This document shows positions 10,717 through 39,250 of a stretch of 64,000 nucleotides of DNA, in pieces (within the stretch, counting starts at the first letter, position 1; the number at the start of each line of letters is the position of its first letter). Location of the stretch: contig WYAX01000022.1 of the NCBI GenBank assembly GCA_011525625.1, forward strand, positions 33,218-97,217. The letters run 5' to 3'. The notes under the pieces are model-generated. The model saw only the letters and a list, made by a program, of their open reading frames with translations. It did not search any database and was not told the origin of the DNA. A program made the translations under genes and the position numbers. Source of the stretch: Nitrospira defluvii. GTDB taxonomy: Bacteria > Nitrospirota > Nitrospiria > Nitrospirales > Nitrospiraceae.

Positions 10717-10732
10717 CTAGGGGTTTCACTAG
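10717..10732 (+). promoter_or_regulatory. CTAG-N8-CTAG box, perfect (CTAGgggtttcaCTAG)
   Basis: TATAAG (10757..10762) 24 nt downstream; upstream of the putative outer-membrane protein and NarL regulator 1. Confidence 0.8.
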
Positions 10733-10810
10733 GCCGCAGCCCTATGACAACTGTTCTATAAGGAAACAGCATCGAACAGTCAGTCCCTGTATGGGAGGAA
10801 AGCGAGGCGT

Positions 10811-12133
10811 GTGAGCGTATCCGTCAAGTCCCGTCGAACAGTCGTGGTGGTTCTGTCTGTCATGATCGGCCTGCTGAATCTGAATATCTTTCTCTCCGAT
10901 CGACAAGCCGGAGAGGCGTGGGGCGAGGAACCGACGCCGATCGCGGGGGAGGAGTTTCGTACGACGCTCTTCGGAGAAGAGATTTATGTGCCGCCGCGTG
11001 ACCGGCGGAGCGTCACGGCCATGAGTTTCGGCATTCAGGCGATTCCAAACGGGCCGAGTCAGATGGAAGCGCTGCCGTTCGGGGCCCTGTATCTCTGGAG
11101 AAATTGGGACGACGACAATCGACGGCTTCGCGGGACGTTTTCCGGTGTGGTGAACGATGTCGATTACACCATCGGTCTGCGGGACTATCCGAACTGGTCG
11201 CTGTTGTTGACGTGGGACAACTTCGTGCTTCCCATGGGTCGGTCCGAATATGTGCAGGGCCAGCGTCAGAGGGGAACGGAACTGGAGTGGAGTTATGCCT
11301 TCGCCGGGGCCGGGCTGGGATATCGGTTGCCGGTGCACCCGTTCCGGCAAGACAGCGCCGTCAACGTGTCTGTGACGTATGAGGCCGGATACCGCTGGTT
11401 TAAGGGGACCGGTCATACGGCGTCCGATTATGGGGTGCCGAAGGATACCTACGAAGGGCGCATCCATTTTCGAATCCGCGCGGATGCGTTGAAGCGTAAC
11501 TTGATGGAACTCCCGCATGAAGGGGTCACCATGGGGGCCGATGTGCTGCACGGTCATCGCGCCAAGTGGGATCAATGGGGCGGGGCGCCCTTCAACACGC
11601 CCGATTTCAAGAAGGAACGGACCTATATTCAGGCGAGTGCCTACGCGTTGCTGGCGACGGGACTGCCGTTCATCGAGAGCGACAAGCATCGCTTGCTGAC
11701 GAGTGTACATGGCGGTATCGGAAAAGATCTGGATCGGTTCTCCGCGTTCCGTCTGCCGGGACGACCCACCGGCTATGAGTGGGAGGCGATCTCCCTTCCG
11801 ATGATCCACGGCGTGGCGTTCAATGAACTCTTTCCCACCCGCTATGCGGTGGCGAATCTTCAGTATCGGTACGAGGCGTTGTTCTTTTTATATCCCTACG
11901 TCGAGGCCACGTGGGGCCTGGTCGAACGTCCGGTGTTCACGTCGAACACGGCCGTGAAGCAGATCACGGATTCAATGCCGGCGTTAGGGGGAGGATTAGT
12001 GACCGGTGCTCCGTGGAAATCGCAGGTCGAGCTGAACTACACGTATAACTTCGGCATTTATCGGGATCCCGGTGGTGCCCCTCCGACCAAGGGTGGCCAT
12101 GGTCTCATCGTCTTTTGGTCCAAAGAACTCTAA
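10811..12133 (+). CDS. Putative outer-membrane beta-barrel protein
   Basis: Hydrophobic N-terminus; aromatic/Gly-rich alternating strands; ends HGLIVFWSKEL. No family recognised. Confidence 0.6.
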   Translation: MSVSVKSRRTVVVVLSVMIGLLNLNIFLSDRQAGEAWGEEPTPIAGEEFRTTLFGEEIYVPPRDRRSVTAMSFGIQAIPNGPSQMEALPFGALYLWRNWDDDNRRLRGTFSGVVNDVDYTIGLRDYPNWSLLLTWDNFVLPMGRSEYVQGQRQRGTELEWSYAFAGAGLGYRLPVHPFRQDSAVNVSVTYEAGYRWFKGTGHTASDYGVPKDTYEGRIHFRIRADALKRNLMELPHEGVTMGADVLHGHRAKWDQWGGAPFNTPDFKKERTYIQASAYALLATGLPFIESDKHRLLTSVHGGIGKDLDRFSAFRLPGRPTGYEWEAISLPMIHGVAFNELFPTRYAVANLQYRYEALFFLYPYVEATWGLVERPVFTSNTAVKQITDSMPALGGGLVTGAPWKSQVELNYTYNFGIYRDPGGAPPTKGGHGLIVFWSKEL

Positions 12134-12221
12134 CAGGAGCCGACCTCTCGTAATCTTGCGGAGACAGTGGTAGGATTTTTTGTCCCGCTACGCATTTCCC
12201 CCTCTAGCCTGGAGCCATGCC

Positions 12222-12905
12222 ATGAAACCCAGAGTCCTGATCGCTGATGACCATACACTCGTGGCGGAAGGTATCGAACGATTGCTGGAGCGCGAGTGCG
12301 ACCTGTGCGGCAGAGTCGCCGACGGACGAGCTCTTGTGCAGGCCGTCGAGCGCGACAGACCGGATATCGCGCTGGTGGATATCGCCCTGCCGCTGCTTAA
12401 CGGATTAGATGCGTGCCGTCAAATCAAGAAGGCCGCGCCGGAGGTGAAGTTGCTGGTGCTCACCATGCACGGAGAACAGTACTTCGTCACGGAAGCGTTT
12501 CGCGCCGGAGTCTCAGGCTATGTACTCAAGCAGTCTGTCGCCGAGGAACTGGTCTTTGCGGTCAAGGAAGTGCTGAAGGGGCGCATGTATGTGTCTCCGA
12601 GCGTCGCCGAGAATCTGGTCGAGCAGGCGCTGCACCCCAGCGCGGAACGACCGTCCGTCGAGACGGCTGCACATGACGGGCTGAGCGTGCGGCAGCGGGA
12701 AGTCCTGCAACTGATCGCCGAGGGGCAGTCGACCAAAGAGATTGCGTCGACGTTGAATGTGTCGATTAAGACGGTGGAGTTCCACAAGACGCGGATCATG
12801 AAACAACTCGGCGTGCATAGTACGGCCGAATTGACCAAACACGCGATTGCGATCGGGTTGATTGTGATGCCTCAACAGCCGACCGTCCCCGAGTCGAGGG
12901 TCTAG
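12222..12905 (+). CDS. NarL/FixJ-family response regulator (REC + LuxR HTH), RR1
   Basis: VLIADDH, phosphoacceptor LVDIALP, LTMH, VLKQS; HTH LSVRQREVLQLIAEGQSTKEIASTLNVSIKTVEFHK. Confidence 0.92.
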   Translation: MKPRVLIADDHTLVAEGIERLLERECDLCGRVADGRALVQAVERDRPDIALVDIALPLLNGLDACRQIKKAAPEVKLLVLTMHGEQYFVTEAFRAGVSGYVLKQSVAEELVFAVKEVLKGRMYVSPSVAENLVEQALHPSAERPSVETAAHDGLSVRQREVLQLIAEGQSTKEIASTLNVSIKTVEFHKTRIMKQLGVHSTAELTKHAIAIGLIVMPQQPTVPESRV

Positions 12906-13107
12906 CAGGCTGCGGAAGCACTCGTGTGTTGCCCAATACGCTCGGATCACCTCATGCGCCGTATCGGCAGCAGAATGCCCCGCAGGATGCGCACACAGGC
13001 CGTCCAGCAAGGCCGCAGCGAGCGACGTGGCCAATCTCCTCCCGCCGTACGGTGAGCGGCTGAGGGATGCGAGCACGCCGCCGGCGGACGTTCATCCTGC
13101 TAGGCGT
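12905..13107. repeat. Copy 2 of the ~205-bp dispersed repeat
   Basis: Fills the gap between the convergent RR stop codons; bounded by CTAGCAGGCTG (12902-12912) / CATCCTGCTAG (13093-13103). Confidence 0.85.
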
Positions 13108-13763
13108 CACGGTTGTGGCTTGTCGAGAGTCGTCAAGCCCTGTGACAACGCGAACCGTGTCAGTTCGGCCGTCGTGTGAATGCCTAGGCGACGAGTGATG
13201 TTGCCTTTGTGAAACTCCACAGCTTTCGCCGAGACTTTGAGTTCCGCCGCGATTTCTTTCGTCGAACGCCCCCTCGTCAACAGCTGCAACACCTCCTGCT
13301 GGCGCGGTGTGAGTTTGGACGAAAACCCCTCCGGTTTGACCCACGGCGTCTCGATCGAGTCCTGCACTTCCACGGACAGCTGAGGGGAAATGTAGCGGCG
13401 ATTTTTCAGCGCCGCGGTCAGCGCCGTGAGGAGCTCGGTCGAGGCCGACTGCTTCAGCACGTATCCTACCGCACCAAGATCGAATGCTTGGGTAATATAA
13501 AAAGGCTCGCTCATCATCGTGACGAAGATCAACTTTGTCCGAGGCAGGGCTGCCCGAAGTTGTCGTGACACATCGAGGCCGTTTACAGTCGGCATGGAAA
13601 TGTCCAGCAGGATGATGTCGGGGGATAAGGCCGGCGCCATGCGCAGTAATTCCTCGCCGTTCACCGCGGATCCGACCACCTCATACTCCGGTTCCAACAG
13701 TTGCCGATAGGCTTCCAGAACGATGCTGTGGTCGTCGGCGATCACGAGACGCGCTTTGGGCAC
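13107..13763 (-). CDS. NarL/FixJ-family response regulator (REC + LuxR HTH), RR2
   Basis: LVIADDH, LLDISMP, VTMM, VLKQS; HTH LTPRQQEVLQLLTRGRSTKEIAAELKVSAKAVEFHK; GGAGG RBS before GTG. Confidence 0.92.
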   Translation of the reverse strand: MPKARLVIADDHSIVLEAYRQLLEPEYEVVGSAVNGEELLRMAPALSPDIILLDISMPTVNGLDVSRQLRAALPRTKLIFVTMMSEPFYITQAFDLGAVGYVLKQSASTELLTALTAALKNRRYISPQLSVEVQDSIETPWVKPEGFSSKLTPRQQEVLQLLTRGRSTKEIAAELKVSAKAVEFHKGNITRRLGIHTTAELTRFALSQGLTTLDKPQP

Positions 13764-13883
13764 GGATCCCTCCTTCTCGATGGTGCGTGTGTGTCACGCA
13801 GCATATCAGGCTCCGCCTCGACAATGACAGTCGGGGCGTGAACCAGTGGTTTCACATGTATCACAGCCATGGGCTCGATGTGC

Positions 13884-13899
13884 CTAGGAAATCCCCTCA
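13884..13899 (-). promoter_or_regulatory. Degenerate box (CTAGgaaatcccCTCA) upstream of RR2
   Basis: TACATG (13860..13855) 23 nt away on the - strand. Confidence 0.6.
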
Positions 13900-13911
13900 T
13901 TCCGTCCGTCG

Positions 13912-13927
13912 CCAGGGCATCGCCTAG
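13912..13927 (+). promoter_or_regulatory. CTAG-N8-CTAG box (CCAGggcatcgcCTAG) upstream of SOD
   Basis: TAGCCT (13951..13956) 23 nt downstream. Confidence 0.8.
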
Positions 13928-14013
13928 TGGGCCCGACGTATCGACGGTGGTAGCCTGACCATGAACACGGCGTCGATCGACGGAAGCCATCTCAGAGCTA
14001 TGGAGGACAACGT

Positions 14014-14649
14014 ATGAACACGCCCGATCTGTATCGCGTCAAGTCCTACGATCTGTTCGGATTGACCGGTATTTCAGACGATACCCTGCGCATGCACTTC
14101 GGTCTGTATGAGGGGTATGTCAAAGCCGCAAATGCACTGCGGGGCCAGCTTGAGGAGTTGCGGCGCGACGGGAAGGTCGATCAGGAAGCCATGCCGGCGT
14201 ACTCGGAACTCACCAGGCGTTTGGGGTTTGAATACAACGGCATGGTACTCCATGAGTACTATTTCGGAAACCTCCTCCGTGGCGGTGGGGATCGTCCCGC
14301 GCCGGAATCGAGTTTCGGGCGGGCGATCGCCAGAACGTTCGGCGATTTTGAACGATGGCAAGCGGATTTTTGCAGCGTCGGCATGTTACGTGGCGTGGGA
14401 TGGGCGATCTGCAATGTCGATCCGTCGAGCGGCTTGGTGTCGAACCATTGGGTCACGCTTCATGAACATGGCAATGTCGCGGGGTTTCAACCGGTGTTGG
14501 TCATGGATGTGTGGGAGCATGCGTATCTGCTCGATTATGCGCCTCACGAGCGAAGGCAGTACATCGACTCATTTTTTCAGAATATCGCCTGGGGCGCGAT
14601 CGAAGACCGCATGCAAGCCGGACTGTCTCCGGCCATGGCCCATCGATAA
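14014..14649 (+). CDS. Fe/Mn-family superoxide dismutase
   Basis: Metal ligands in MHFGLYEGYV, LHEYYF and MDVWEHAYLLDY; GGAGG RBS. Confidence 0.9.
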   Translation: MNTPDLYRVKSYDLFGLTGISDDTLRMHFGLYEGYVKAANALRGQLEELRRDGKVDQEAMPAYSELTRRLGFEYNGMVLHEYYFGNLLRGGGDRPAPESSFGRAIARTFGDFERWQADFCSVGMLRGVGWAICNVDPSSGLVSNHWVTLHEHGNVAGFQPVLVMDVWEHAYLLDYAPHERRQYIDSFFQNIAWGAIEDRMQAGLSPAMAHR

Positions 14650-14949
14650 CGGAGCACGAGCATGAGACGAGATCCGTTCGTGAAGTCACCCCATCCGTCG
14701 CCACCGGATCCCGAGCCGCTTCCCGACCCGGCGCCCGGCCCCTGTCCGCCGGAACCGTTTCCTTCGCCGGTTCCTCCGCACCCGACGAAGCCGCCGATAC
14801 CGCAATTGGGGAATGTGAGGCGTGGTGCGCGGGGCGCCTGGCTGTGTTCGTTCGGATGGTACGGAACCTTCCGACGGTATTCTCGTCGATGGCCTTCGCA
14901 AACACGCAGACGAGCAGTCCGCGACGGTCGAGCGAGAAGGAGGTCGTAT

Positions 14950-15246
14950 ATGGATGCATCACACAAGGTCGATCTCATCCGTCCCTGGATTGATCCGGAG
15001 GAGCGGGTGACGGTGGATTTTCATAATGAGCGAGGGTTGAACGGAGAAATCGTCGAATGTGACGGCCAGACCGTGACGATGGTGCTGGAGACCGCGTTTC
15101 CGCACTATCGCCAAACCGTGACGCTTCCGCTGAGCATGGTGTCGATCGGCGAAGACAAGGGGCATTACACGAGAAATCCCGAAAGGCCGTTGCAGTACGG
15201 TCGGCTGCGCCTCGTCGTGCATGAGGACAGGCCTCATATGGCGTAA
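14950..15246 (+). CDS. Hypothetical protein (98 aa)
   Basis: AAGGAGG RBS before ATG 14950. The in-frame Pro-rich upstream part from 14662 may or may not be translated. Confidence 0.6.
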   Translation: MDASHKVDLIRPWIDPEERVTVDFHNERGLNGEIVECDGQTVTMVLETAFPHYRQTVTLPLSMVSIGEDKGHYTRNPERPLQYGRLRLVVHEDRPHMA

Positions 15247-15777: not shown

Positions 15778-15793
15778 CTAGGGACATCCCTAG
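15778..15793 (+). promoter_or_regulatory. CTAG-N8-CTAG box, perfect (CTAGggacatccCTAG)
   Basis: TAAGGT (15817..15822) 23 nt downstream. Confidence 0.85.
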
Positions 15794-15874: not shown

Positions 15875-16057
15875 ATGCAGATGCTCACTGCCCCGTCGAT
15901 CCCTTCTGGAGTCGTCCTGACCGTCGCCCTGTGTGCGCTGGCGTTCGGGGTGCAATCCAAGCAACTCCTGTCCAGATTCACCGCCGGTCGCGAGGAGGGC
16001 GAACCGCTGGGGTGCGAATCGGCCTGGCCGCATCTCCGGACAGATTGCCGCATGTAA
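15875..16057 (+). CDS. Candidate 60-aa membrane microprotein
   Basis: AGAGG RBS; first ORF after a boxed promoter; one hydrophobic segment (GVVLTVALCALAFGV). Confidence 0.45.
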   Translation: MQMLTAPSIPSGVVLTVALCALAFGVQSKQLLSRFTAGREEGEPLGCESAWPHLRTDCRM

Positions 16058-16115
16058 TGCCGTGTGGTGGGTGCCCGCATCTCAACACTGTCAGCACACT
16101 GTGAAAGGAGCCGCT

Positions 16116-16655
16116 ATGAGCCGTACGAAAGGCCAATCATCATTCGCTCAGGATATCCAAGCCCTCAGAGAACGCGCCCGTCAACACATCGAGGATGGGG
16201 CGCAGACGTCGGACTACCGGGCGGATCGCGATACCGTCCTCCGCCTGCTGAACGAGGCGTTGGCGACCGAAATCGTCTGTGTCCTGCGTTACCGGCGGCA
16301 CTACTTCATGGCGGAAGGCATGAACGCGGAAAGCGTGAAGGCGGAATTCTTGGCGCATGCCGGGGAAGAGCAGGCGCATGCCGATCAATTGGCCGAGCGC
16401 ATTGTGCAACTGGGCGGCGAGCCGAACTTGTCGCCGTCCGGTCTGACCGAGCGCAGCCATAGCGAGTACGTGGAGGGGGACGATCTGGAGGACATGATCA
16501 AGGAGGATTTGGTGGCTGAACGGATCGCGATCGAAAGTTACCGGGACATGATTGCCTTCGTCGGAAGCGACGACCCGACCACGCGACGCCTGTTGGAGGA
16601 AATCCTCGCTAAAGAAGAAGAACATGCGGAGGATCTGGTCAGTTTATTGAAGTAG
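16116..16655 (+). CDS. Ferritin-like / bacterioferritin-like diiron protein
   Basis: [28 protein letters not shown] diiron pattern; AAAGGAG RBS. Confidence 0.85.
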
Positions 16656-16719: not shown

Positions 16720-18858
16720 ATGAAGGTATGGCCAGGCCGTCCCTATCCGCTGGGGGCAACGTGGGACGGGGAGGGGGTCAACTTCTCTCTGTTCTCTGAA
16801 AACGCGACGTCGGTCGAATTGTGTCTGTTTGATGGACCGGACGCCTCCAAGGAATCCCATCGGATTCGCATGGAGGAGCGGACCAATCAGACGTGGCATG
16901 TGTACCTGCCGGAGGGGCGCCCTGGCCTCCATTATGGGTTTCGGGTAGACGGTCCGTACGATCCGCAAGCGGGACACCGGTTCAACCCGGCGAAGCTGTT
17001 GATCGACCCCTATGCCAAATCCATTGCCGATACCATTCGCCTCTCGGATCGGATGTTCGGCTACCGGTTGGGCGAGGCGGATGGGGATCTGGTGCGTGAT
17101 GACCGCGACAATGCCGAAGAGATGCCGAAATGTGTCGTGGTGGACCAAGCGTTCAGCTGGGGCGGCGATCATCTGCTCCGCACGCCCTGGTCCAAAACGA
17201 TCATTTATGAAGTACACGTGAAGGGATTCACCGCCCGCCATCCGCAGGTGCCGGAACATTTACGCGGCACCTATGCCGGGTTATCCACGCCGGCGGTCAT
17301 TGAGTACCTCCAGGAGCTGGGGGTCACCGCCGTCGAATTGTTGCCGGTGCACCATGCGGTGCAGGACAAACATCTCACGGATCAGGGGCTGACGAATTAC
17401 TGGGGGTACAACACCATCGGATTTTTCGCGCCCGACATGCGCTACGCCGCCAGTCCCGTGCGCGGGCGACATGTGCGCGAATTCAAGACCATGGTCAAAA
17501 CCCTGCACAGCGCCGGAATCGAGGTGATTCTCGACGTGGTCTACAACCATACGGCCGAGGGCAACCACCTGGGGCCGACGCTGTCGTTCCGCGGCATCGA
17601 CAACGCGGCCTACTACCGGCTGATGGCGGACGACCCGCGCTACTACATGGACTACACCGGTTGCGGAAACAGCCTGAATGTCCGACACCCGCGAACCTTG
17701 CAGTTGATCATGGACAGTCTGCGTTATTGGGTTCTGGACATGCACGTGGACGGGTTCCGGTTCGACCTGGCCTCCACCTTGGCCAGAGAACTGCATGAGG
17801 TGGATCGTCTCAGCGCGTTTTTCGACATCATCCATCAGGACCCCATCTTGTCGCAGGTCAAACTGATCGCGGAGCCATGGGATCTCGGGGCCGGGGGGTA
17901 CCAGGTCGGCAATTTCCCGGTCGGCTGGGCGGAATGGAACGGCAAGTATCGCGATGCGATTCGCCGCTACTGGAAGGGAGACGGCGGGCAAGTCGCTGAA
18001 TTAGCCTATCGGCTGTCCGGCAGCAGCGATCTCTATGAAACGAGCGGACGTCGCCCCTTCGCCAGCATTAACTTCATCACGGCGCATGACGGATTCAGCC
18101 TGCAGGATCTCGTGTCGTACAACGAGAAACACAACGAGGCCAACGGCGAGGGCAATCAGGATGGCCACAACGACAACCTCAGCTGGAATTGCGGGATCGA
18201 AGGTCCGACCGATGACCCGGTGATTCTCGATTTGCGTCTGCGACAGAAGCGGAACATGTTGACCACCCTCTTGCTGTCCCAGGGGGTGCCGATGTTGTGC
18301 GGGGGGGATGAAATCGGCCGGACCCAGCAGGGGAACAACAACGCCTACTGCCAGGACAACGATTTGAGCTGGCACGATTGGAATCTGACGGCTGAAGATC
18401 GCGATCTCCTCGGTTTCGTCCGGCAATTGATCGCCCTGCGTCAGCGGCATCCGGTCTTCCGCCGTCGCCGATTTTTTCAGGGGCGGAACATTCATGGGTC
18501 GGAGATCAAGGACATCGTGTGGTTGCGTCCGGACGGCCGGGAGATGGATGAAGCGGATTGGAGCCAAGGATATCTCCGCGCGTTGGGAATCGTCCTGGCC
18601 GGTGATGCCATCGAGGAATCGGATGCACGCGGCAATCGAATCGTCGACGACACGTTCCTGCTGCTCCTCAATGCGCACCATGAGGCGATTCCCTTTCTGT
18701 TGCCTTCCGACGACGGCACTGCTCCCTGGAGCGTGGTCCTCAATACCCATGTGGGTGGAATCGCGCATCCGCCTTCCAGCGTGACGGGCGGCGAGCCCTT
18801 CACCATCGAACCCCGCTCCATGGCCCTGCTCTGCCGGCTGTCTGGCGCGACGTTCTGA
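16720..18858 (+). CDS. glgX: Glycogen debranching enzyme (isoamylase)
   Basis: [74 protein letters not shown]. Confidence 0.95.
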
Positions 18859-25615: not shown

Positions 25616-25631
25616 CTGGGGATTACCCTAG
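25616..25631 (-). promoter_or_regulatory. CTAG-N8-CTAG box (CTGGggattaccCTAG) upstream of HK1
   Basis: TATGAT (25592..25587) 23 nt away on the - strand. Confidence 0.8.
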
Positions 25632-27712: not shown

Positions 27713-27728
27713 CTAGGCATACCGCTAG
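27713..27728 (-). promoter_or_regulatory. CTAG-N8-CTAG box, perfect (CTAGgcataccgCTAG) upstream of HK2
   Basis: TACCAT (27688..27683) 24 nt away on the - strand. Confidence 0.85.
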
Positions 27729-29835: not shown

Positions 29836-30425
29836 AAGAGTCCTCGCCCTCGTGACAAGAAGAGATCGGTGAGGTCGGCGAGCGACATCGGCTCTGCGGT
29901 CGGACAGGCGGCCAGTGCCGCGTCCGGCATCATCCGCGCCGTCGCCGAGTGTGGATGTTGCACCAGCACCGTGCCTCCGGCCCGACCGACCGCGCGGGCT
30001 CCCTGGGCGCCGTCGTGGTTCGCTCCGGTTAAGATCACCGCCAAGAGGCTGTCCCGGTAGACGTCCGCGGCGGATTCGAGCAGGACGTCGATCGAAGGTC
30101 TGGAGTAGTTGACCGGCTCTTCGTTCGACAGCGAGAGTCGGCGGTCGTCTTCCACGAGCAGGTGGTAATCCGGCGGAGCGAAGTAGACCGTGCCGGAGTG
30201 AGCGGGCTCCTTGTCCTCCGCCTCTTTCACTCGGACGCGGCACTTGGCCTGTAAGAGACTCGCGATCGAGTGGGGCTGGTCCGCAGGCACGTGCACCGCC
30301 ACCAGGATAGCCAGCGGAAAGTCCTGGGGGAGCGGCGGAAGCAGCTGGGAGAGCGCGGCAATGGCTCCCGTCGAGGCGCCGATGACAACGGCTTCGATGT
30401 GGCGAATGGAGGTCACCGTGCGCAT
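29823..30425 (-). CDS. cheB: Stand-alone CheB-type methylesterase (no REC)
   Basis: Catalytic motifs GASTG (Ser), VHV (His), GANHDG (Asp); SRPSIDVL. Confidence 0.9.
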   Translation of the reverse strand: MRTVTSIRHIEAVVIGASTGAIAALSQLLPPLPQDFPLAILVAVHVPADQPHSIASLLQAKCRVRVKEAEDKEPAHSGTVYFAPPDYHLLVEDDRRLSLSNEEPVNYSRPSIDVLLESAADVYRDSLLAVILTGANHDGAQGARAVGRAGGTVLVQHPHSATARMMPDAALAACPTAEPMSLADLTDLFLSRGRGLLCRP

Positions 30426-31270
30426 GGGTCTTCTGTCTCTCCCCGCTTTTGATAGATCCGCTCCTGGGGCAGAATCTCGGTAAAGGCCTTGGCGTGGGCG
30501 TTAAAACGCAACGTTTCTCTCGCTCCCATCCCCAGGAATCCTTTTCGGACGAGCGCGTCTCTGAACAGTCCCACCGCGGTGTCTTGCAGCGGGCGATCGA
30601 AATAAATCAGCACGTTGCGGCAGGAGATCAGGTGCATTTCGCCGAAGACGGAGTCGGAGGCAAGGCTATGGTCTGAAAATACCGTGCGCCGGCGTAAGGT
30701 CTGATCGAAGCGAGCGGCCCCGTAGGCGGCGTGGTAGTAGTCCGACAACGAACCGCTGCCGCCGGAGAGGCGGTGGTTCTTCGTAAACAACGCCACGCGT
30801 TCCAGGGCATAGACTCCGGCCTCCGCCCTCGCGAGGGCATTGCCGTTGACATCGGTGGCATAGAACATCGTCTTCTCCTCCAGGCCCTCTTCCCGAAACA
30901 GGATCGCCAGGGAGTAGAGCTCTTCCCCGGAACTGCAGCCCGCGACCCAGACTTTCAGCGAGGGATAGGTCTTCAAGTGCGGGATGATGTGTTGGCGGAG
31001 CGCGCGAAAGTAGGCCGGGTCACGAAACATGTCGCTGACTTGTACGGTCATATAGTCGAGCAGTTGGGGCAAGATCCGGTCGTCGTGCAGCAATCGTTCC
31101 TGCAAGGCCGAGAGCGTCGAGCAGCCCAGGCGCTGGCAGGCCAGGGCCAGCCGGCGCTTGAGGGAAGCTCGTGAATAACCACGGAAGTCGTAGTGGTATT
31201 GCGAGTACATCGCCTCAAGAAAGAGACGCAGCTCGATGTCTCCCGTCCTCGCCGCGGCCTCCTGCGTCAT
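30413..31270 (-). CDS. cheR: CheR-type methyltransferase
   Basis: YDFRGYSRASLKRR, VSDMFRDP, KVWVAGCSSGEELYS, YATD, LISCRNVLIYF; ATG overlaps the upstream kinase stop. Confidence 0.92.
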   Translation of the reverse strand: MTQEAAARTGDIELRLFLEAMYSQYHYDFRGYSRASLKRRLALACQRLGCSTLSALQERLLHDDRILPQLLDYMTVQVSDMFRDPAYFRALRQHIIPHLKTYPSLKVWVAGCSSGEELYSLAILFREEGLEEKTMFYATDVNGNALARAEAGVYALERVALFTKNHRLSGGSGSLSDYYHAAYGAARFDQTLRRRTVFSDHSLASDSVFGEMHLISCRNVLIYFDRPLQDTAVGLFRDALVRKGFLGMGARETLRFNAHAKAFTEILPQERIYQKRGETEDPCAR

Positions 31271-34200
31271 CGTGGCATCCATACACGGATCAGCGAGAGC
31301 AATTGATCCACATCCAGCGGTTTCGCCATGTAGTCGTTGGCCCCCGCCGCCAAGGCCTGCTCCTGATCGTTCTTCATGGCTTTGGCCGTCAGGGCGATGA
31401 TGGGCAGGTTCTTCCGGTCGGGCCGTTCGCGAATAGCCCGCATGGCGGTCAGGCCGTCCATTTCCGGCATCATGATATCCATCAACACCATGTCGATGCC
31501 CTGGTCTCCGGTCGGTCTGGTGCGATCCAGCAGGGCCAGACATTCGCGCCCGTTTCGCGCGATCTCCAACTTGACGCCATGAGGTTCCAGGACTGCACTC
31601 AAGGCAAAAATATTGCGGACATCGTCTTCCACGATGAGAATGCGTCGTCCGTCGAGGGCGGCATTGCGGCTCCGTGCCTTTTCCAGCATGCGCTGTTGTT
31701 CGGGCGGCAACGTCGTGACGACCTGATGCAGGAACAGCGTCACTTCGTCAAGCAGCCGTTCGGGCGACTTGGCGCCCTTGATGATGATGGAATGGGAGTA
31801 TTTGCGCAGACGTTGTTCTTCGTCGCCGGACAGATCCCGTCCGGTATAAACGATGACGGGCGGAAAGGCGAGGTGTTCTTCGCGACTCAGGCTTGCCAGC
31901 AACGAAAATCCTGACGCATCCGGCAGGGTGAGGTCCAACACCATGCAGTCGAAGGTTCGCTGGGTCAGATGTGTGAGGCATTCGGCGGCGCTTTCCGCCC
32001 CGACGGTTTCGACGTCGTTGGAACCGAGCAACAGGCAGAGGCTCTCGCGTTGAGCCGGGTCGTCTTCCACGATGAGGACCCGTCGGGGCCGTTCCGTCAG
32101 CCGAGTTTCGAATCGGCGGAAGGCCTCGACCAGTTGCTCACGTTTGACCGGTTTCAGCATGTAGCCGACCGCGCCGAGCGACAGTGCCGTCTTCACGTGG
32201 TCGTGGCCGGAAATCACGTGCACCGGAATGTGGCGCGTGCGCACATCCGATTTCAGGCGGTCGATCACGGAGAGACCGGAATGGTCCGGCAATCCGATAT
32301 CGAGAATGACGGCACTCGGGAGGTAGCGGGACGCGAGGAGCACCGCATCGGCCGCCGTGGCACTGGTGATGACCTGAAAGTTGAGTTCATGGGCGAGGTC
32401 GGAAAGAATGCGCGAAAAAGATTCATCGTCTTCGACGATCATGAGCAGCCGTCGGTCGGCCGAAAGCCACTCTCGGTCGTCAGCCGGTGTCGGCACGGCT
32501 CGGCCGTTCCGCTGGTCCCTTGCCGGCGGGTCCTCGAGACCGTACGACAATGCAGCGGGAACCGGTGTGTGCCCCGGTGAAGCGGGGAAGGAGACAGGAG
32601 CGGCCGGGCCGGCTGTCGTTCGTGGGAGCAGCACAGTGAATGTACTGCCCTGTCCGGGGATGCTGGTCAGGTGAATGTGGCCGCCGAGCAGGCGCACGAA
32701 TTCGCGGGAGATGGAGAGCCCGAGTCCCGTCCCCCCGTACTTGCGGCTGGTCGTTCCGTCGGCTTGACAAAACGGTTCGAAAATCAAGCCTTGCTGGTCG
32801 GTCGGAATGCCGATGCCGGTGTCTTGTACGGCGAAGGCAAGCCAGCCGTCCGGCAGCGGGCTGATGTCGAGGGACACCGAGCCCGTTTCCGTAAATTTGA
32901 TCGCGTTGGACAGGAGGTTTCTCAGCACCTGTTCCAGGCGCTGCCGGTCGGATTCAATGGACTCCGGTGCCCCCGGCGCCTGTGTGACACGCAGCCGCAG
33001 GCCTTTCCGATCCGCCAGGGGCGCGAACAGGGCATGGAGGCTGTCCTGCAGGCGTTGGAGCGAAATCTCTTCCGGCGTCAGCTCGATGCGCCCGGCTTCG
33101 ACCTTGGCGAGGTCGAGCACGTCGTCGATGAGGGTCAACAGATCGTGGCCGGCGGATTCGATCGTGGTGACCGATTTGATCTGGTCCGGCGTGAGGTTCC
33201 CCTGCGGATTATCCGCAAGCAGTTTGGACAGAATCAGCGTGGAATTGAGCGGTGTACGCATCTCGTGCGACATGTTGGCCAGGAATTCGGACTTATAGCG
33301 GCTGACCTGCTCCAAGCGGCGCTTGTGAGCTTCCAAGGTCTGAGTGGCCTCCGTGAGGTCCTCCTTCTGCGTCTCGAGGATCTGCGCCTGTTCCTCCAGC
33401 TGGCTGTTCGTCTGTTCCAGTTCAACCTGCTGTTGTTCGAGCCGGCCGTGCGATTCCTTGAGCGCCCGGCTCTGTTCTTCGAGTTCTTCATTCGCAACCC
33501 GCAGTTCCTCGCTCTGCACCTGTAATTCCTCGGCTTGACGTTGGGTCTCCTCAAGCAAGTCCTGCAGCTGGGAGCGATAACGGGCCGACCGGACGGAGAG
33601 GGCGATGGCTTGGCTCAGACGGCTGATCAGCTCCCGATCCGACTCCTGGAACGGGTGAAAACACGCGAGTTCCAGCAAGGTATTGATGCGACCGTCGACG
33701 CCGATCGGCGCGATCAGCAGATGCCGCGGCGCATGTTGTCCCAGGGCGGAACCGATGGTGAAGTAGCCGTCCGGCAGATCCTCGACCACCATAGGCTGTT
33801 GTTCTTGAAGCGCGCGACCCATCAATCCGTCACCGGGCCGGAGACGATCCGGGATGGGACTAGCGTCCGGGACTCCATAGGTCGCGGTGCGATGGAACTG
33901 GCCGGCCTCTTCGATAAAGATGGCCCCGCCCTGCGCACCCAGGTACGCGGCGAGCCCGTGCAACACATTTTCCCCGAGAGTCTCCAGGGTCTGATCGCCC
34001 ATCATGCGCTCGCTCAGTACCGTCTGGCCGACCCGTATCCATTCTTCTCTCCGCAGGGCCAGGCGACTGCTGACGAACTGATGTCCGAGGGCGGCCAGGG
34101 CGATGGCTGTCACGGCCCCCATCCCTCGATTCATCAATGCGACGGACGGGTCGATGCCGGTAGGGCTGATGAGGAAACCGGCGAACATTATCAGTGTCAC

Positions 34201-34386
34201 GACCCCGCCGATGATGACCGGCACGGCGGGATTCCACGTGAGATACGACAACACCAGAGGAATCAAATACAGCACCCACACGGTGATGCCGAGTGCGGTA
34301 TACCATTCAGAGAGAAACACCAGCGCCAGGGCGAGGGCGAGTCCGCCGGCGATCAGGGGGGTCGGCCGTTGTTGAAATCGCCTCAT
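31267..34386 (-). CDS. Membrane hybrid histidine kinase (TM, GAF, coiled coil, HisKA, HATPase, 3 REC)
   Basis: FLANMSHEMRTPLN H-box; NLLSNAIKFT; DTGIGI; GGTGLGL; three receivers (LDIGLP, LDLTLP, MDIMMP). Confidence 0.92.
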   Translation of the reverse strand: MRRFQQRPTPLIAGGLALALALVFLSEWYTALGITVWVLYLIPLVLSYLTWNPAVPVIIGGVVTLIMFAGFLISPTGIDPSVALMNRGMGAVTAIALAALGHQFVSSRLALRREEWIRVGQTVLSERMMGDQTLETLGENVLHGLAAYLGAQGGAIFIEEAGQFHRTATYGVPDASPIPDRLRPGDGLMGRALQEQQPMVVEDLPDGYFTIGSALGQHAPRHLLIAPIGVDGRINTLLELACFHPFQESDRELISRLSQAIALSVRSARYRSQLQDLLEETQRQAEELQVQSEELRVANEELEEQSRALKESHGRLEQQQVELEQTNSQLEEQAQILETQKEDLTEATQTLEAHKRRLEQVSRYKSEFLANMSHEMRTPLNSTLILSKLLADNPQGNLTPDQIKSVTTIESAGHDLLTLIDDVLDLAKVEAGRIELTPEEISLQRLQDSLHALFAPLADRKGLRLRVTQAPGAPESIESDRQRLEQVLRNLLSNAIKFTETGSVSLDISPLPDGWLAFAVQDTGIGIPTDQQGLIFEPFCQADGTTSRKYGGTGLGLSISREFVRLLGGHIHLTSIPGQGSTFTVLLPRTTAGPAAPVSFPASPGHTPVPAALSYGLEDPPARDQRNGRAVPTPADDREWLSADRRLLMIVEDDESFSRILSDLAHELNFQVITSATAADAVLLASRYLPSAVILDIGLPDHSGLSVIDRLKSDVRTRHIPVHVISGHDHVKTALSLGAVGYMLKPVKREQLVEAFRRFETRLTERPRRVLIVEDDPAQRESLCLLLGSNDVETVGAESAAECLTHLTQRTFDCMVLDLTLPDASGFSLLASLSREEHLAFPPVIVYTGRDLSGDEEQRLRKYSHSIIIKGAKSPERLLDEVTLFLHQVVTTLPPEQQRMLEKARSRNAALDGRRILIVEDDVRNIFALSAVLEPHGVKLEIARNGRECLALLDRTRPTGDQGIDMVLMDIMMPEMDGLTAMRAIRERPDRKNLPIIALTAKAMKNDQEQALAAGANDYMAKPLDVDQLLSLIRVWMPR

Positions 34387-37300
34387 GGGGTACTCAGCAG
34401 GGCGTTCCGGGCGGTGAGGATGGTATGGTAGAGATCTTCGACGGCGGCCTCCTTGTTTAGGAAGGCGATGGCGCCGGCCTCGCGCATGGCCATGCCCACG
34501 TGGCCGGCATTTTGAACGGACAAGCCGATTACGATCGTGCTGGGCATGGCCTCCTTGATCAGTCTGGTAGCCTCGATGCCGTCCAGCCCCGGCATGTTGA
34601 CGTCCATGAGGACGACATCGGGCTGTAACTGGGTGGTGAGGGCCACCGCTTCCTGCCCGTTGGCCGCTTCACCCAGGACCTCGATGTCTGCATACCCGGC
34701 CAGCAGCCCGCACAGCCCCTGCCGGACCATCGCATGGTCGTCGGCGATCAGGACCCTGATGACCGGGGTAGGCCGGTGGGGGCGGCCGTCGAGATACGTG
34801 GATGAGCCCGGATACTTCTTGCTGGTCCGGGAGGAACTCGTAACCGGTTCATGGGGAGGCAACAGCGACCCGGTCGGTTGAAGCCGGGTTGCAAGGGGCA
34901 TGACGAGCGTCGCGACCGTGCCCTGACCAGGCCGTGAGCAGAGATCGAACCGTCCCCCGAGCGCAAGCATCCGCTCACGGATACTCAACAGCCCGAATCC
35001 TGGCACTGTCCCCTGCCGGGGCAGGGCGGTCTTCTCCGCGGGCAAAAAGCCGGCACCATGGTCCGTCACCGTGATCCGCAAATGACCGTCGTCGACCAGG
35101 ACCGCAATGGCCGCGTCCTTCGTGCCCGCATGTTTCACTACATTCATCAGCAGCTCGCGGATGGATTGGAACAGCAGCATGGCTTGATCTTCCGGGAGGG
35201 CCAGTTCGGCCGGGCAGAAGTCCAGGGAGACGTGTAGCTCTCGTTGGAGCATTTGCTCGGCCAACCATCGCAAGGCCATCGGCAGACCGAATTCCTTGAG
35301 AATCGGCGGACTGAGTTGGGCGACCAGGGTTCTGGTGTAGGTCAACGCCTGATCCGTGACCTCCTGCAACTCATGCAAGGTCCGGCTCAGCGGGGGCGTC
35401 ATCGGGTGTTGCATGGCCTGCGCCAGGCGAATCCGGCTGAGGGCGAGGAGTTGGGCCAGGTAATCATGCAGCTCGGTCGCCACCTGTTGGCGCTCGCGTT
35501 GTCCCGCAAGATTCAATTCGGTGGCCAGGGCCCGTAACTGTTCCCGCGACTGTGTCAGTTCGAGCGTACGTTCGTCCACGCGATGTTCCAATTGAGCGGC
35601 AAATCGCTGCAAGTCCTGCTCGGCTTGTTTGCGTTCGGTGATGTCGTAGTTGATGCCGATCATGCGGACCGGCCGGCCCTGATCATCCGTGACGGTCGCA
35701 CCCTGTCCCGACAGCCAGCGGACGGTGCCGTCCTGGTGCACGACGCGAAATTCCGACGTGAACAAGCCCGTGTCCATCGCTCGCGCGGCCGCGTCCTGTA
35801 CCTGAGCGGCATCGTCAGGGTGCAGCGCCGCGTAGAACTCCTCCGCTCGACGGACCGGCCGATCCGTCGGCCGTCCGAAGAGTTCGTACTGTTTTGCGTC
35901 CCAGGTGGTCTCTCCCGTATGGAGATTGAGATCCCAGGCCCCCATGCGTCCCGCCACCATGGCCAGTCGCAGCCGTTCCTCGCTGGCGCGCAGCACCTCA
36001 TCGGCCTGAGCCCGAGCGACGGCGAGTGCCAATGTCGTGGCCAAGGCCTGCGACCATTCGATCTCCTCGTCGGTCATGCGGCGCGGCCGGTCGAAGTACA
36101 GCATGAACTTGCCCAGCAATCGGCCGCCGTAGGTGAGGGGAATGAAGGCGAGGGCCCGGATGCCTTCTCGTTGGATCGTGGCCTGCAATTCGGGACTCAA
36201 CGCAGAGACGGCGACCTGGTCTATGAACAGCGGCGGAGGGTCTTTTTGATCGGCGGTCCATGGGGAGTGCCCCTCGACCGCGCGCTGATAGTCCGCAGAC
36301 AGACCCCGGGAAGCCCTGAATCGCATCACACCTTCGTCATCGATGAGGAGAATTGCCGCCCGATCTGCGTGGACCGCATCCGCCATGGCGTGTAAAGCCT
36401 GTTCATAGAGACGCGACGACGGTTCCGCGCGATTCACGGCATCGGCCAGCTCGTAGAGCCATTGTTGCCGTCGATTGACGATCAGCAGCTGGGCCTCCTG
36501 CCGTTTGCGGTCGCTGATGTCGAGTCCGACGCCCACGATGGAGTGTAGGTCCGTACCCTCCCTGACGCCGCCGACACTGACACTCATCCATACGGCCGTC
36601 CCGTCTTTCCGCCGGTAGCGTTTCTCGATCACGAAATCGGGGCCGCCCTGGGCGAGCTGTTGGAACAGATCGAGATTGCGCGGAAGGTCCTCGGGATCCG
36701 TCACGTCTTGCATGCGCATGCCGAGCAATTCGGACTCCGTATAACCCAGCAGGTCGCACAACCGTCGGTTCACGAGTTGGAACCGGCCGGTCAGATCGGT
36801 TTGTGCGACCGTGACCGTGGCGTGGTTGACGATCGCCCGCAATTGCGCCTCGCTGGCAGCGATGTGTCCGGCCGCCTCACGACGAAGTCGGCCCAGATTC
36901 AAATGGGCCGACACCCGCGCCAGCAACTCTCGCCCGCTGAAGGGTTTCACCAGGTAGTCGTCGGCGCCCTGCTCGAGGCCCTCGATGCGTGGCTCCTCGC
37001 CGGCGCGCGCGGAGAGCAGAATAATGGGAATGGTTCGCAGGGCCGGATCAGCCCGCAGGATCCTGGCCAGGCCGATGCCGTCCAGTTGCGGCATCATGAT
37101 GTCGCTCAGGAGCACATCCGGGGGGCGGCGACGAATCTCGGCCAACGCGGCAAGTCCGTCTCCGACCGCGTTGACCTCGTAGTGCTCGCGCAGCAGGCGC
37201 ACAATGTAGCGACGCATGTCGGCATTGTCGTCGGCCACGAGGATTCGGGCTCGTCCGATTGCAGGCCGATCCGGCGAGGGCGCCTCTTCCCGCGAGACAT

Positions 37301-39110
37301 CTGTTCCGACCTCGGGCAGCCACTGCCACGCTTCTTCGAGATAGGCTGACACAGTCCCTGTGTCGGTGGACGGGGCGGTCTCGAGGCCGACCTGTTCCGG
37401 CGGCAGATGGTTCTTCCCCCAGGGGAGCGTTACCGAGAAGGTGCTGCCTTCGTCGAGGCGGCTCTCGACCTGGACCGTGCCTCCATGGAGCCGTACGATT
37501 TCCTGGACGATCGCCAATCCGATGCCGCTCCCCTCATGTGTCCGGCTTCGCCGGTGCTGGACTCGGTAGAATCGTTGAAACAGCCGCGGGAGCGCGTCAT
37601 CGGGGATGCCGACGCCGGTATCCCGCACCGCCAGCGTGACACCCTCCTGGTCGTGCCTGATCGACAGCGAGATTGCTCCCTGAAACGTATGTTTGAACGC
37701 GTTGCTGAGCAGGTTCAGCACAATCTTCTCCCACATGCTTCGATCGACAAAGACCGGTTGCGGCAGGGACGGGCAGTCGATACGGAAGGTGAGACCGGCT
37801 CCCTCAATGGCAGAGCGAAACCCGCTCGCCAGGTCTGCGCTGTAGGCGGCCAGGTCGGTCGGTTGATACAAGGCCTCGGCGCGGCCTGCTTCAATGCGTG
37901 AGAAGTCCAGCAGGATATTCACGAGTTTCAGGAGGCGCACACTGTTTCGATGGGCGACCTCTAGGTTGGTGTTCTGTGGCCGCTCGCGGAGTTCTTCCTC
38001 CAGGGGGCCGAGCATGAGCGTGAGGGGAGTGCGAAACTCGTGGCTGACATTGTGAAAGAACTCCGTCTTGGCCCGGTCCAATTCGGCTAGGGCCTCCGCG
38101 CGTCGCGCCTCGGACTGATAGGCTCTCGCATTGGTGAGGGCCATGGCAATTTGCGAGGCGACCATGCCGAAGAAATGCCGATAGTCCCCGTCCAACTGCC
38201 GACGCGGACTGACCGCGGCGATCAGCAGGACATTGCCGTCCTGATGGGTGCCTTGGGTGATGGGCAGGATGATCGCCTGTCTGGTCGGCTCGGGCCAGGC
38301 CCCCCCGGGGAGCCAGCCGAACCGATCGGCAAGATCCTCAAGGACCAGCGGGCTACTCTGTTGAAGCGCCGCTGCGAGAGGCCAGCTCGACCTGGTCTGG
38401 CGCTCGTGGAGGTCGATTCGGTCTTGCCTGGCAGGGTGGTCCTTCTCCAGCCCGACCGCGCCGGCGAGGGTGGCTTGGCCGCCGCTCCGATCCATTCGAT
38501 AGAGAAGTGCGAAGGGAAGATCGGCGGGGTCGGTGGCGAGTGATTGTAACGCCAGCACACACGCGTCGTCCTCGTGCTGAGCCGATCCGGAAAGGGAGGC
38601 GAGTTCGCGCAACAGGCGCGTGCGGCGATCGTTCAGGACGCGGTACGTGGTCTCTTGAACGATATTGAGGATCCCTTCGACCTGCCCGTCCTGGCCGCGA
38701 ATGGGATTCAGGCTGTAATCGAAGTAGCATTCTTCCGTATAACCGAACCGTTGCATGGGAAGCAGCTCGTCGCTTCTCCAGTTGGCCTCCCCTGTGGTGA
38801 GGACGCTCCGGTAGTAATGCTGAATCGTGGGCCACAACTCCGGCCAGACGTTTCTCGCCGGTTTGCCCAGAGCCCAGGGATGCTTTCCGCCCACGATCGG
38901 ACGCCAGGCGTCGTTATACAGGAGCCAGGAATCCTTCCCCCAATAGATGGCCATTGGGGTTTGGGCGGTCAGGCAGACACTCAAGGTGGAGACGAGTGCG
39001 GCAGGCCACCGTTCGATCGGACCGAGTGGAGTGTTCGACCACTCGAAGGCCTTGATACGTTCCCCCATTTCACTTCCGGTCAGCCAGTTGGACGGATGGT
39101 GTGCGTTCAT
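34383..39110 (-). CDS. Double-core hybrid histidine kinase HK4 (PAS-like, GAF, HisKA, HATPase, REC, PAS, GAF, PAS, HisKA_3, HATPase, REC)
   Basis: Two H-boxes (SHEFRTPL; ELHDYLAQ), two N-boxes (NLLSNAFKH; ELLMNVVKH), two receivers (SDIMMP; MDVNMP) in one 1575-aa ORF. Confidence 0.9.
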   Translation of the reverse strand: MNAHHPSNWLTGSEMGERIKAFEWSNTPLGPIERWPAALVSTLSVCLTAQTPMAIYWGKDSWLLYNDAWRPIVGGKHPWALGKPARNVWPELWPTIQHYYRSVLTTGEANWRSDELLPMQRFGYTEECYFDYSLNPIRGQDGQVEGILNIVQETTYRVLNDRRTRLLRELASLSGSAQHEDDACVLALQSLATDPADLPFALLYRMDRSGGQATLAGAVGLEKDHPARQDRIDLHERQTRSSWPLAAALQQSSPLVLEDLADRFGWLPGGAWPEPTRQAIILPITQGTHQDGNVLLIAAVSPRRQLDGDYRHFFGMVASQIAMALTNARAYQSEARRAEALAELDRAKTEFFHNVSHEFRTPLTLMLGPLEEELRERPQNTNLEVAHRNSVRLLKLVNILLDFSRIEAGRAEALYQPTDLAAYSADLASGFRSAIEGAGLTFRIDCPSLPQPVFVDRSMWEKIVLNLLSNAFKHTFQGAISLSIRHDQEGVTLAVRDTGVGIPDDALPRLFQRFYRVQHRRSRTHEGSGIGLAIVQEIVRLHGGTVQVESRLDEGSTFSVTLPWGKNHLPPEQVGLETAPSTDTGTVSAYLEEAWQWLPEVGTDVSREEAPSPDRPAIGRARILVADDNADMRRYIVRLLREHYEVNAVGDGLAALAEIRRRPPDVLLSDIMMPQLDGIGLARILRADPALRTIPIILLSARAGEEPRIEGLEQGADDYLVKPFSGRELLARVSAHLNLGRLRREAAGHIAASEAQLRAIVNHATVTVAQTDLTGRFQLVNRRLCDLLGYTESELLGMRMQDVTDPEDLPRNLDLFQQLAQGGPDFVIEKRYRRKDGTAVWMSVSVGGVREGTDLHSIVGVGLDISDRKRQEAQLLIVNRRQQWLYELADAVNRAEPSSRLYEQALHAMADAVHADRAAILLIDDEGVMRFRASRGLSADYQRAVEGHSPWTADQKDPPPLFIDQVAVSALSPELQATIQREGIRALAFIPLTYGGRLLGKFMLYFDRPRRMTDEEIEWSQALATTLALAVARAQADEVLRASEERLRLAMVAGRMGAWDLNLHTGETTWDAKQYELFGRPTDRPVRRAEEFYAALHPDDAAQVQDAAARAMDTGLFTSEFRVVHQDGTVRWLSGQGATVTDDQGRPVRMIGINYDITERKQAEQDLQRFAAQLEHRVDERTLELTQSREQLRALATELNLAGQRERQQVATELHDYLAQLLALSRIRLAQAMQHPMTPPLSRTLHELQEVTDQALTYTRTLVAQLSPPILKEFGLPMALRWLAEQMLQRELHVSLDFCPAELALPEDQAMLLFQSIRELLMNVVKHAGTKDAAIAVLVDDGHLRITVTDHGAGFLPAEKTALPRQGTVPGFGLLSIRERMLALGGRFDLCSRPGQGTVATLVMPLATRLQPTGSLLPPHEPVTSSSRTSKKYPGSSTYLDGRPHRPTPVIRVLIADDHAMVRQGLCGLLAGYADIEVLGEAANGQEAVALTTQLQPDVVLMDVNMPGLDGIEATRLIKEAMPSTIVIGLSVQNAGHVGMAMREAGAIAFLNKEAAVEDLYHTILTARNALLSTP

Positions 39111-39234
39111 CGTGAGGCCCGGCACAATGGAATGGTCGCGGATGGTGCTCGCCCGCCGAAGGGACCGTGAGTCACGACCGGACGATGCTCAGGAATCGCT
39201 GAAGGTTGTAGCATTCCCGCCGGCCTTCCCCCCA

Positions 39235-39250
39235 CTAGTGAAACCCCTAG
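39235..39250 (-). promoter_or_regulatory. CTAG-N8-CTAG box, perfect (CTAGtgaaacccCTAG) upstream of the HK4 operon
   Basis: TACAAC (39210..39205) 24 nt away on the - strand; exact reverse complement of the 10717 box. Confidence 0.85.

Follow-up and report, generated by a model that had tools for sequence, protein, structure and literature searches.

The question raised by a 64-kb stretch of Nitrospira defluvii DNA (the window; positions 33218-97217 of contig C13, in a genome of 4.6 Mb and ~59% GC) is how the histidine kinases (HK1-HK5) and the two response regulators (RR1 and RR2) encoded in it are wired to one another and to a 16-bp palindrome, the box, that recurs along it. An earlier note, made from the letters alone, had placed both the signal input and the output of a regulon inside this DNA. 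It had several sensors converging on RR1 and RR2, which in turn would induce their own genes and the kinases. We find it probable that HisKA_3 kinases of one clade do feed RR1 and RR2, most likely directly, and that class-II promoters, among them the ones in front of the kinase and regulator genes themselves, are activated by the regulator. In soils, waters and treatment plants, nitrite is oxidised mainly by Nitrospira, a group that also includes complete ammonia oxidisers. To our knowledge, they are not yet genetically tractable and their survival of starvation, oxidative stress and drying is poorly understood. No account of the box or of the regulon in Nitrospira was found in the searchable literature.

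We focus first on the box, CTAGGG-N4-CCCTAG (consensus CTAGGG(R)(W)(W)(Y)CCCTAG), which is concentrated in the window. Strict boxes (CTAG-N8-CTAG) number 19 genome-wide, of which eight lie in the window, where shuffles lead one to expect 0.06; relaxed boxes (CTAGG-N6-CCTAG with at most one mismatch) number 33, with 14 in the window. The spacing is specific as well. Across the whole genome, CTAG is followed by CTAG at N8 in 19 sites and at other short spacings in 1-6, and control spacers of 4, 5, 7 and 8 between the same half-sites give 13-19 sites with 0-1 in the window. The boxes before the u440-RR1 operon, HK2 and the HK4 operon are strict and those before HK1 and RR2 degenerate, all five being where the earlier note had placed them (Table 1). 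The box at 39235 is the exact reverse complement of that at 10717.

What follows the box is equally constrained. Of the 192 orientations of 96 non-redundant boxes, taken from this genome and from loci of other Nitrospira, 58 have a TAnnnT element that starts 23-24 nt past the box, with other offsets giving ~2, and no -35 consensus stands between box and -10 in the pooled boxes. Genome-wide, the composite of a box (at most one mismatch), N23/24 and TAnnnT is found at 14 places. The window contains nine of these, and control offsets give 0-1. Exact -10 spacing is seen for HK1 (25616), HK2 (27713), superoxide dismutase (SOD; 13912), the ferritin-like gene (15778), the PLD-VTT gene (40330) and the gene of a CxxCH protein (625), and also before minus-strand genes at 566, 57554 and 61643; near-consensus -10 elements follow the boxes of the HK4 operon (39235), u440-RR1 (10717), RR2 (13884) and a PRC-barrel gene (6561). 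A standard sigma-70 scan detected no complete promoter around the regulators. The box would thus be positioned at about -51 to -36, centred near -43.5/-44.5 relative to the predicted transcription start, and the predicted promoters show the geometry of class-II activator-dependent sigma-70 promoters: a site near -41 to -45, a fixed distance to the -10 element and no -35 element. This geometry is typical of lux-box promoters, whereas an operator can lie at varying positions and requires the rest of the promoter to be complete. Since the geometry is fixed, feedback is most likely positive, as had been proposed, with activation the probable direction of regulation. Kinase and regulator genes stand behind the same promoter type as the stress genes, and the placing of input and output inside one regulon holds in this respect. 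A palindrome that overlaps a promoter could nevertheless be an operator, and activation and repression are indistinguishable from sequence alone; RR1 and RR2, phosphorylated or not, would then block -51 to -36, giving negative autoregulation and derepression under stress. We regard such a repressor as very improbable, given that the distance from box to -10 is fixed within 1 bp in ~60 promoters of several genera and that no -35 hexamer accompanies them.

Divergent pairs of boxes occur three times (566/625, 13884/13912 and 40298/40330), each half serving one of two back-to-back genes, which suggests that the two genes share a regulatory region to which a pair of activator dimers binds, 28-59 bp apart. 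The gene at 701-2149, which one such half faces, encodes a secreted product of 482 amino acids with two CxxCH motifs (CLDCH and CAQCH) and no Pfam match; it may be a di-haem peroxidase-like stress protein, and a homologue is present in the island of genome G170 (locus L116). Two further boxes, a strict one at 8654 and another at 45490, lack a correctly spaced -10 element and are unlikely to be promoters; the former lies at the end of a copy of a repeat resembling miniature inverted-repeat transposable elements (MITEs).

Second, the kinases form a family. Domain calls here and below are by Pfam, and the scan of the window covered its main open reading frames (ORFs), largely picked by a heuristic. 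A minus-strand block of 16.5 kb carries, in gene order, HK4-HK5-CheR-CheB-HK3-HK2-HK1. HK1 to HK4 match PF07730 and PF02518 above cut-off and share an invariant H-box, ELHDYLAQ. The four HisKA_3-HATPase-REC hybrids described in the earlier note are present as it located them, and their inputs differ as it said: a hydrophobic N-terminus, which in HK1 is probably a membrane sensor, PAS, REC, and GAF/kinase. Calling their shared C-terminal modules near-identical was an overstatement, in that these are 48-52% identical in pairs over a length of ~390 residues, near-invariance being confined to the H-box helix, LRALAxxLxxxEQRERxxLAxELHDYLAQLL. The terminal NarL-type receivers retain their DD, D, S and K residues and, as had been recognised, are not followed by a helix-turn-helix (HTH), because the proteins end 10-25 residues past the REC. 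HK5 and the cheR and cheB genes between HK5 and HK3 belong to the cluster and were missing from the text of the earlier note. A fifth kinase with the same module is encoded on another contig (C24:108820-112128, a frame of 1102 amino acids) and is adjoined, convergently, by a free-standing receiver of the terminal type of ~125 amino acids (C24:112123-112869). On the same contig, relaxed boxes with a -10 element lie at C24:98638 and C24:105376.

Within the kinase operon, cheR and cheB are translationally coupled (29823-31285), and the substrate of their products may be one of the kinases. No CheA, CheW or methyl-accepting chemotaxis protein (MCP) was found among the main window ORFs scanned.

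Third, the regulators and the module kinases alike are orphans. RR1 and RR2 are REC+GerE regulators at the loci previously described, matching PF00072 and PF00196 with receiver residues (DD, D, T/S and K) visible. No terminator separates RR1 from u440, and the nearest kinase gene is 8.8 kb away and non-adjacent to either regulator. The genome encodes 14 HisKA_3 kinases. Ten of these lie outside the window, nine of which are each adjoined by a GerE regulator of their own, and the orphans are the four in the window plus the C24 copy; at least eight other GerE regulators are orphans as well. The TVEFHK recognition helix of RR1 and RR2 is common to six GerE regulators, namely these two, one orphan and three with kinases of their own, and the box may therefore be readable beyond RR1 and RR2.

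Table 1. Boxes, genes and comparison loci of the predicted circuit. Positions are those of the window, except in the last row, where they are those of the locus.
Feature	Position	Strand	Description
Box for u440-RR1 operon	10717-10732	+	CTAGGGGTTTCACTAG; strict; -10-like TATAAG at offset 25
Box facing RR2	13884-13899	-	TGAGGGGATTTCCTAG on the minus strand; degenerate (...CCCTCA); TACATG at offset 24
Box facing Fe/Mn superoxide dismutase gene (14014-14649)	13912-13927	+	-10 element TAGCCT at offset 23
Box before ferritin/Dps-like gene (15933-16655)	15778-15793	+	CTAGGGACATCCCTAG; perfect palindrome
Box for HK1	25616-25631	-	CTAGGGTAATCCCCAG on the minus strand; degenerate (CTGGGG...CCCTAG); -10 element TATGAT starts 23 nt downstream
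Box for HK2	27713-27728	-	Strict; -10 element TACCAT starts 24 nt downstream; 14 bp past the HK3 stop
Box for HK4-HK5-cheR-cheB-HK3 operon	39235-39250	-	Strict; near-consensus -10 element TACAAC at offset 25
Divergent box pair	566-640		566 (-); 625 (+) toward di-haem CxxCH protein 701-2149
Divergent box pair	40298-40345		40298 (-) toward g39323; 40330 (+) toward PLD-VTT protein 40385-42661
u440	10811-12133	+	Secreted, probably outer-membrane protein; no Pfam match; immediately 5' of RR1
RR1	12222-12905	+	REC+GerE (FixJ/NarL-type); recognition helix ...KTVEFHK...
RR2	13107-13763	-	REC+GerE paralogue of RR1, convergent with it
HK1	22601-25414	-	Hydrophobic N-terminal region (no Pfam match)-PAS-HisKA_3-HATPase_c-REC (NarL-type, terminal)
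HK2	25656-27662	-	PAS-PAS-HisKA_3-HATPase_c-REC (Pfam, module alignment)
HK3	27742-29835	-	REC-PAS-HisKA_3-HATPase_c-REC; start overlaps cheB stop
CheB	29823-30425	-	CheB-type methylesterase domain only, no receiver (Pfam)
CheR	30413-31285	-	CheR-type methyltransferase; start ~31273-31285, overlapping HK5 stop (Pfam, sequence)
HK5	31267-34386	-	Transmembrane-GAF-HisKA-HATPase_c-REC-REC-REC hybrid kinase; not of the HisKA_3 module type (Pfam)
HK4	34383-39110	-	HisKA-HATPase-REC-PAS-GAF-PAS-HisKA_3-HATPase-REC; two kinase cores in one protein
Locus L037			REC-HisKA_3-HATPase-REC kinase, then RR2, convergent with RR1
Locus L111			PAS-HisKA_3-HATPase-REC kinase, then RR1
Locus L112			Box between divergent kinase and REC-RR1 operon
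Locus L113			Kinase 1.5 kb upstream of RR2, 2.2 kb from RR1
Locus L116 (G170, another family)	17266-18771		Non-hybrid ABM-HisKA_3-HATPase kinase, H-box DLHDYLAQ, directly upstream of RR2 and co-oriented

Comparison between genomes ties these elements together. The same 201 genomes of the class were searched for the kinase module (called present by profile A1 at E <= 1e-70), for RR1 orthologues (E <= 1e-74 and at least 58% identity) and for boxes. The module occurs in 40 genomes and RR1 in 36, all 36 having the module, and none of the 161 genomes without the module has RR1; the co-occurrence of module, regulator pair and box, put forward earlier as something to look for, is thus borne out. Within the family Nitrospiraceae (87 genomes), 35 have both, none has RR1 only, two have the module only and 50 have neither (Fisher p = 3e-22), and the mean number of strict boxes is 20.8 in genomes with the module vs 6.5 in those without. 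Presence is patchy within at least four genera, the window's own genus comprising 11 genomes with both and four with neither. The relatives of the kinases come nearly all from Nitrospira or Nitrospiraceae assemblies, and module kinases, 4-5 in this genome, number up to at least nine in relatives. Near the module loci of other Nitrospira, the density of boxes is 49 per Mb vs ~4-7 per Mb genome-wide. Boxes precede HK4-like operons (L114, L115), an HK2/HK3-like operon (L113), a REC gene followed by RR1 (L112) and RR2 itself (L101, L104, L106, L114, L115), and strict boxes with a -10 element face RR2 in loci of genus g6. In other genera too, boxes with a correctly oriented -10 element precede kinase operons and regulator genes.

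Co-occurrence of this kind could in principle reflect linkage without wiring. The kinases would then signal elsewhere, to their own RECs, to each other or to another regulator, and either some other kinase would drive RR1 and RR2 or another TVEFHK regulator would read the box. A DNA comparison of the four same-genus genomes without the module shows that they lack the whole section from the regulator pair through SOD, ferritin, an outer-membrane protein (OMP) and DUF1207, and the unit is therefore a variable island whose absence removes all of its parts together. Four other GerE regulators share the recognition helix, one of them (on contig C22) having a box with a correctly spaced -10 element beside it; genomes without RR1 have up to 19 boxes; and the other orphan GerE regulators mentioned above also speak for it. 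The arrangement of genes argues against this view in several respects. First of all, gene order has been rearranged, yet in at least six genera RR1 and a module kinase share a contig at a distance of 1-28 kb, with genes for SOD, GlgX/TreZ, DUF1207, OMP, TreY and PLD interspersed between them, and the convergent RR1-RR2 pair is found in 30 of the 30 RR1 loci examined. Second, wherever a clade kinase adjoins any regulator, as in loci L037, L111-L113 and L116, that regulator is an RR1 or RR2 orthologue. Third, a tree of the DHp-CA regions puts all module kinases and all kinases adjacent to the regulator pair in one clade (96 of 96), separate from the nine other HisKA_3 kinases of the genome, each of which has its own adjacent partner; in the tree of the clade, the closest relatives of HK3 adjoin the regulator pair in other genomes. 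Finally, boxes stand directly before RR1 or RR2 in many genera. We thus consider linkage without wiring decidedly improbable. A mirror-tree argument was tried and is uninformative: the three kinases with TVEFHK regulators form a clade of their own that is not specifically sister to the module clade.

In the kinase of locus L116, an N-terminal antibiotic biosynthesis monooxygenase-like (ABM) domain serves as the sensor and the terminal receiver is absent. This non-hybrid architecture may be the ancestral one in the clade.

How the phosphoryl group would reach RR1 and RR2 is a separate matter. BvgS, EvgS, RcsC/RcsD and BarA feed NarL-family regulators by phosphorelay, and a classical relay is conceivable here, in which the kinases phosphorylate only their own terminal RECs and a histidine phosphotransfer (HPt) protein, encoded elsewhere or unrecognised, passes the phosphoryl group on to the two regulators. 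The four kinases are all hybrids whose phospho-acceptor Asp is intact, and the HPt route is the usual one for hybrid kinases (PMC3509222). The earlier note had seen no HPt gene, which stands for the window's contig, where no Hpt domain scores above cut-off, and for ~116 related loci totalling 1.4 Mb, in which there is none either; elsewhere in the genome there are 14 Hpt domains above cut-off. Four of these sit in small proteins whose genes either adjoin a hybrid kinase or REC of their own or belong to a partner-switching operon. Nor do the counts fall where the island has been lost, same-genus genomes having 8-15 Hpt domains with the island vs 13, 10, 14 and 12 without it. By linkage and by count comparison, no HPt is fused to, encoded with or co-lost with the system; an unrecognisable HPt-like protein may exist. 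The non-hybrid clade kinase co-oriented with RR2 in L116, together with the ~10% of clade members that have no terminal REC, also speaks against a relay through that receiver, and we judge a phosphorelay unlikely. Direct transfer has a precedent in SgmT-DigR of Myxococcus xanthus, where an orphan hybrid kinase signals directly to an orphan DNA-binding regulator, with no HPt and with its own receiver off the pathway (PMC3509222).

Three candidate leads concerning this step were set aside. One was a relaxed box at C2:170597 that immediately precedes a gene for a stand-alone HPt and might have been a link to a relay; it is made up of a Shine-Dalgarno sequence and a stop codon where two genes meet in a REC-SpoIIE partner-switching operon, and it lacks the -10 geometry. 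u440 and g39323 were considered as hidden phosphotransferases; both have signal peptides and are envelope-like, and u440 is not kept beside RR1 outside the genus. Receiver similarity was considered as a way of telling a sink from a relay, and neither bit scores nor alpha-1 positions discriminate.

On the direct-transfer reading, the likelier role of the terminal receiver is that of a tethered competitor (a phosphate sink or a threshold setter) or of an intramolecular gate, a relay step being less likely. Four observations point this way: no HPt travels with the system, about a tenth of the clade does without the receiver, a member without it is paired with RR2 (L116), and the receiver is also found as a separate protein, encoded in one operon with RR1 (L112) and beside a kinase (C24). 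A stronger version, that this is a distinct two-component design with a decoy receiver built into the kinase, sinks overcome by strong or combined input, and bistable entry into the stress state, is speculative and, taken as a whole, we rather doubt it. The receiver would be what is left of a NarL-type partner, once fused to the kinase, after loss of the HTH; it would compete with RR1 and RR2, and would be overcome only by strong input or by the combined input of several kinases. Among 143 clade members, there were no kinase-REC-HTH fusions of the kind that would show such an origin. If this version were true, the sinks together with feedback through the box would give all-or-none entry into dormancy or stress, with the circuit carried on one transferable island.

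The mechanism that we favour may be summarised as follows. The window would be the core of an accessory Nitrospira stress/dormancy island that carries its own control circuit. A lineage-specific clade of kinases, HK1-HK4 and the C24 copy, would sense through membrane, PAS, GAF and REC-gated domains and autophosphorylate at the invariant His of the H-box; the phosphoryl group would then go, most likely directly, to the convergent pair RR1/RR2. A phosphorylated regulator dimer would bind CTAGGG-N4-CCCTAG, centred ~43-44 bp upstream of the start, in place of a -35 element. This would switch on SOD, ferritin/Dps, PRC-barrel, CBS, BON, hemerythrin, PLD and other genes, and would also switch on the promoters of HK1, HK2, the HK4 operon, RR2 and u440-RR1, closing a positive feedback loop. 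The extra receivers of HK3, HK4 and HK5 may add kinase-to-kinase gating, and the embedded CheR and CheB suggest control by methylation. Fan-in onto RR1/RR2 with positive feedback is, as a reading of these sequences, well supported without being proven; which kinase phosphorylates which regulator, and which regulator binds the box, we infer. Adjacency and co-occurrence bear out the convergence of several sensors that had been proposed, except that the network is probably not a pure fan-in, because HK3, HK4 and HK5 carry extra receivers, which suggest steps from kinase to kinase. Each of the computational checks proposed in the earlier note turned out in its favour.

A number of observations weigh against this mechanism. 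At the promoters, the -10 elements of RR1, RR2 and HK4 are imperfect, and some genomes without RR1 still have 12-19 boxes. Four other TVEFHK regulators in the genome might bind the same box. At the level of gene arrangement, the regulator pair lies within 10 kb of the module at just two of 80 kinase-module loci, and since the island is gained and lost as a block, part of the co-occurrence is physical linkage. Regarding partner choice, the receivers of RR1 and RR2 are not the nearest kin of the terminal RECs, scoring 66-67 bits vs up to 123 bits for other NarL-type receivers, and the alpha-1 contact residues are alike in all three groups, which is compatible with direct transfer and does not discriminate between partners. 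To these must be added the 14 Hpt domains of the genome and the fact that hybrid kinases normally signal through HPt (PMC3509222).

The feature as observed is real and conserved, and the predicted circuit is a variant of a familiar bacterial signalling design. Its closest functional analogue is DosS/DosT-DosR (DevR) of Mycobacterium, in which more than one HisKA_3 kinase with GAF/PAS-type inputs acts on a NarL-family regulator that governs a dormancy regulon and its own expression; the likeness is one of function alone, an analogy and not membership. In both, several HisKA_3 kinases would act on a NarL-family regulator, a palindrome overlaps the -35 region and the system would activate itself. 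Unlike their mycobacterial counterparts, the Nitrospira kinases are hybrids with a C-terminal NarL-type receiver, are present in 4-5 copies and include one with two cores, and the Nitrospira system has two convergent paralogous regulators, another box sequence, cheR and cheB in the kinase operon, and a place on one variable island. At the promoter, the resemblance is to LuxR-type class-II promoters, whose lux box is centred near -42.5: a palindrome for a GerE-type HTH dimer would stand in for the -35 element, with a fixed spacing to the -10. The Nitrospira site differs in being 16 bp long and bounded by CTAG, and its regulator would depend on phosphorylation and not on a ligand. Fan-in as such is known from phosphorelays, from KinA-E through Spo0F and Spo0B to Spo0A in Bacillus and from LuxN, LuxQ and CqsS through LuxU to LuxO in Vibrio. 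There too diverse sensors converge on one regulator of a developmental or stress programme, with positive feedback in the case of Spo0A. Those relays, however, need an HPt or a Spo0B-like phosphotransferase, none of which is linked to the Nitrospira island, and use HisKA-type kinases and non-NarL regulators. SgmT-DigR, the precedent for direct transfer, differs in that SgmT is single and has a GGDEF domain after its receiver, there is no fan-in and no demonstrated feedback, and kinase and regulator are of different families (PMC3509222). Finally, Che3 of Rhodospirillum centenum is reported to be a Che-like cascade with hybrid response-regulator/histidine kinases that controls cyst formation (PMC3868531). 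The combination of Che components with REC-gated kinases recalls the cheR and cheB embedded in the window; Che3 is reported to be built around a CheA-type kinase (PMC3868531), unlike the window, in which no MCP, CheW or CheA turned up among the ORFs scanned.

With a defined box, two candidate regulators and one kinase family, the island is a compact and testable unit. Within one and the same genus some strains have it and others do not, which may account for unequal tolerance of stress. It also offers a natural multi-kinase network of HisKA_3 hybrids without a linked HPt, which could show how tethered receivers shape the relation of input to output.

Some further features of the window deserve mention. 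A MITE-like repeat of ~205 bp lies between RR1 and RR2 (12900-13107), with a second copy near 8453-8661, and a DNA search found dozens of copies, 75-87% identical, across same-genus genomes, with at least 30 of them in G200, for instance, and at least 20 in G044. The gene of a glycogen debranching enzyme (GDE_N + GDE_C; 47907-50017) occupies two ORFs that overlap in different frames: 47907-48356 covers positions 1-91 of GDE_N, and 48350-50017 covers positions 101-218. The cause is a frameshift, decay to a pseudogene or an error of assembly. The window ORFs scanned included no rhodopsin gene; at 51086-51505, beside a thiamine pyrophosphate (TPP)-dependent enzyme, the window encodes a member of the family of Anabaena sensory rhodopsin transducers (ASRT).

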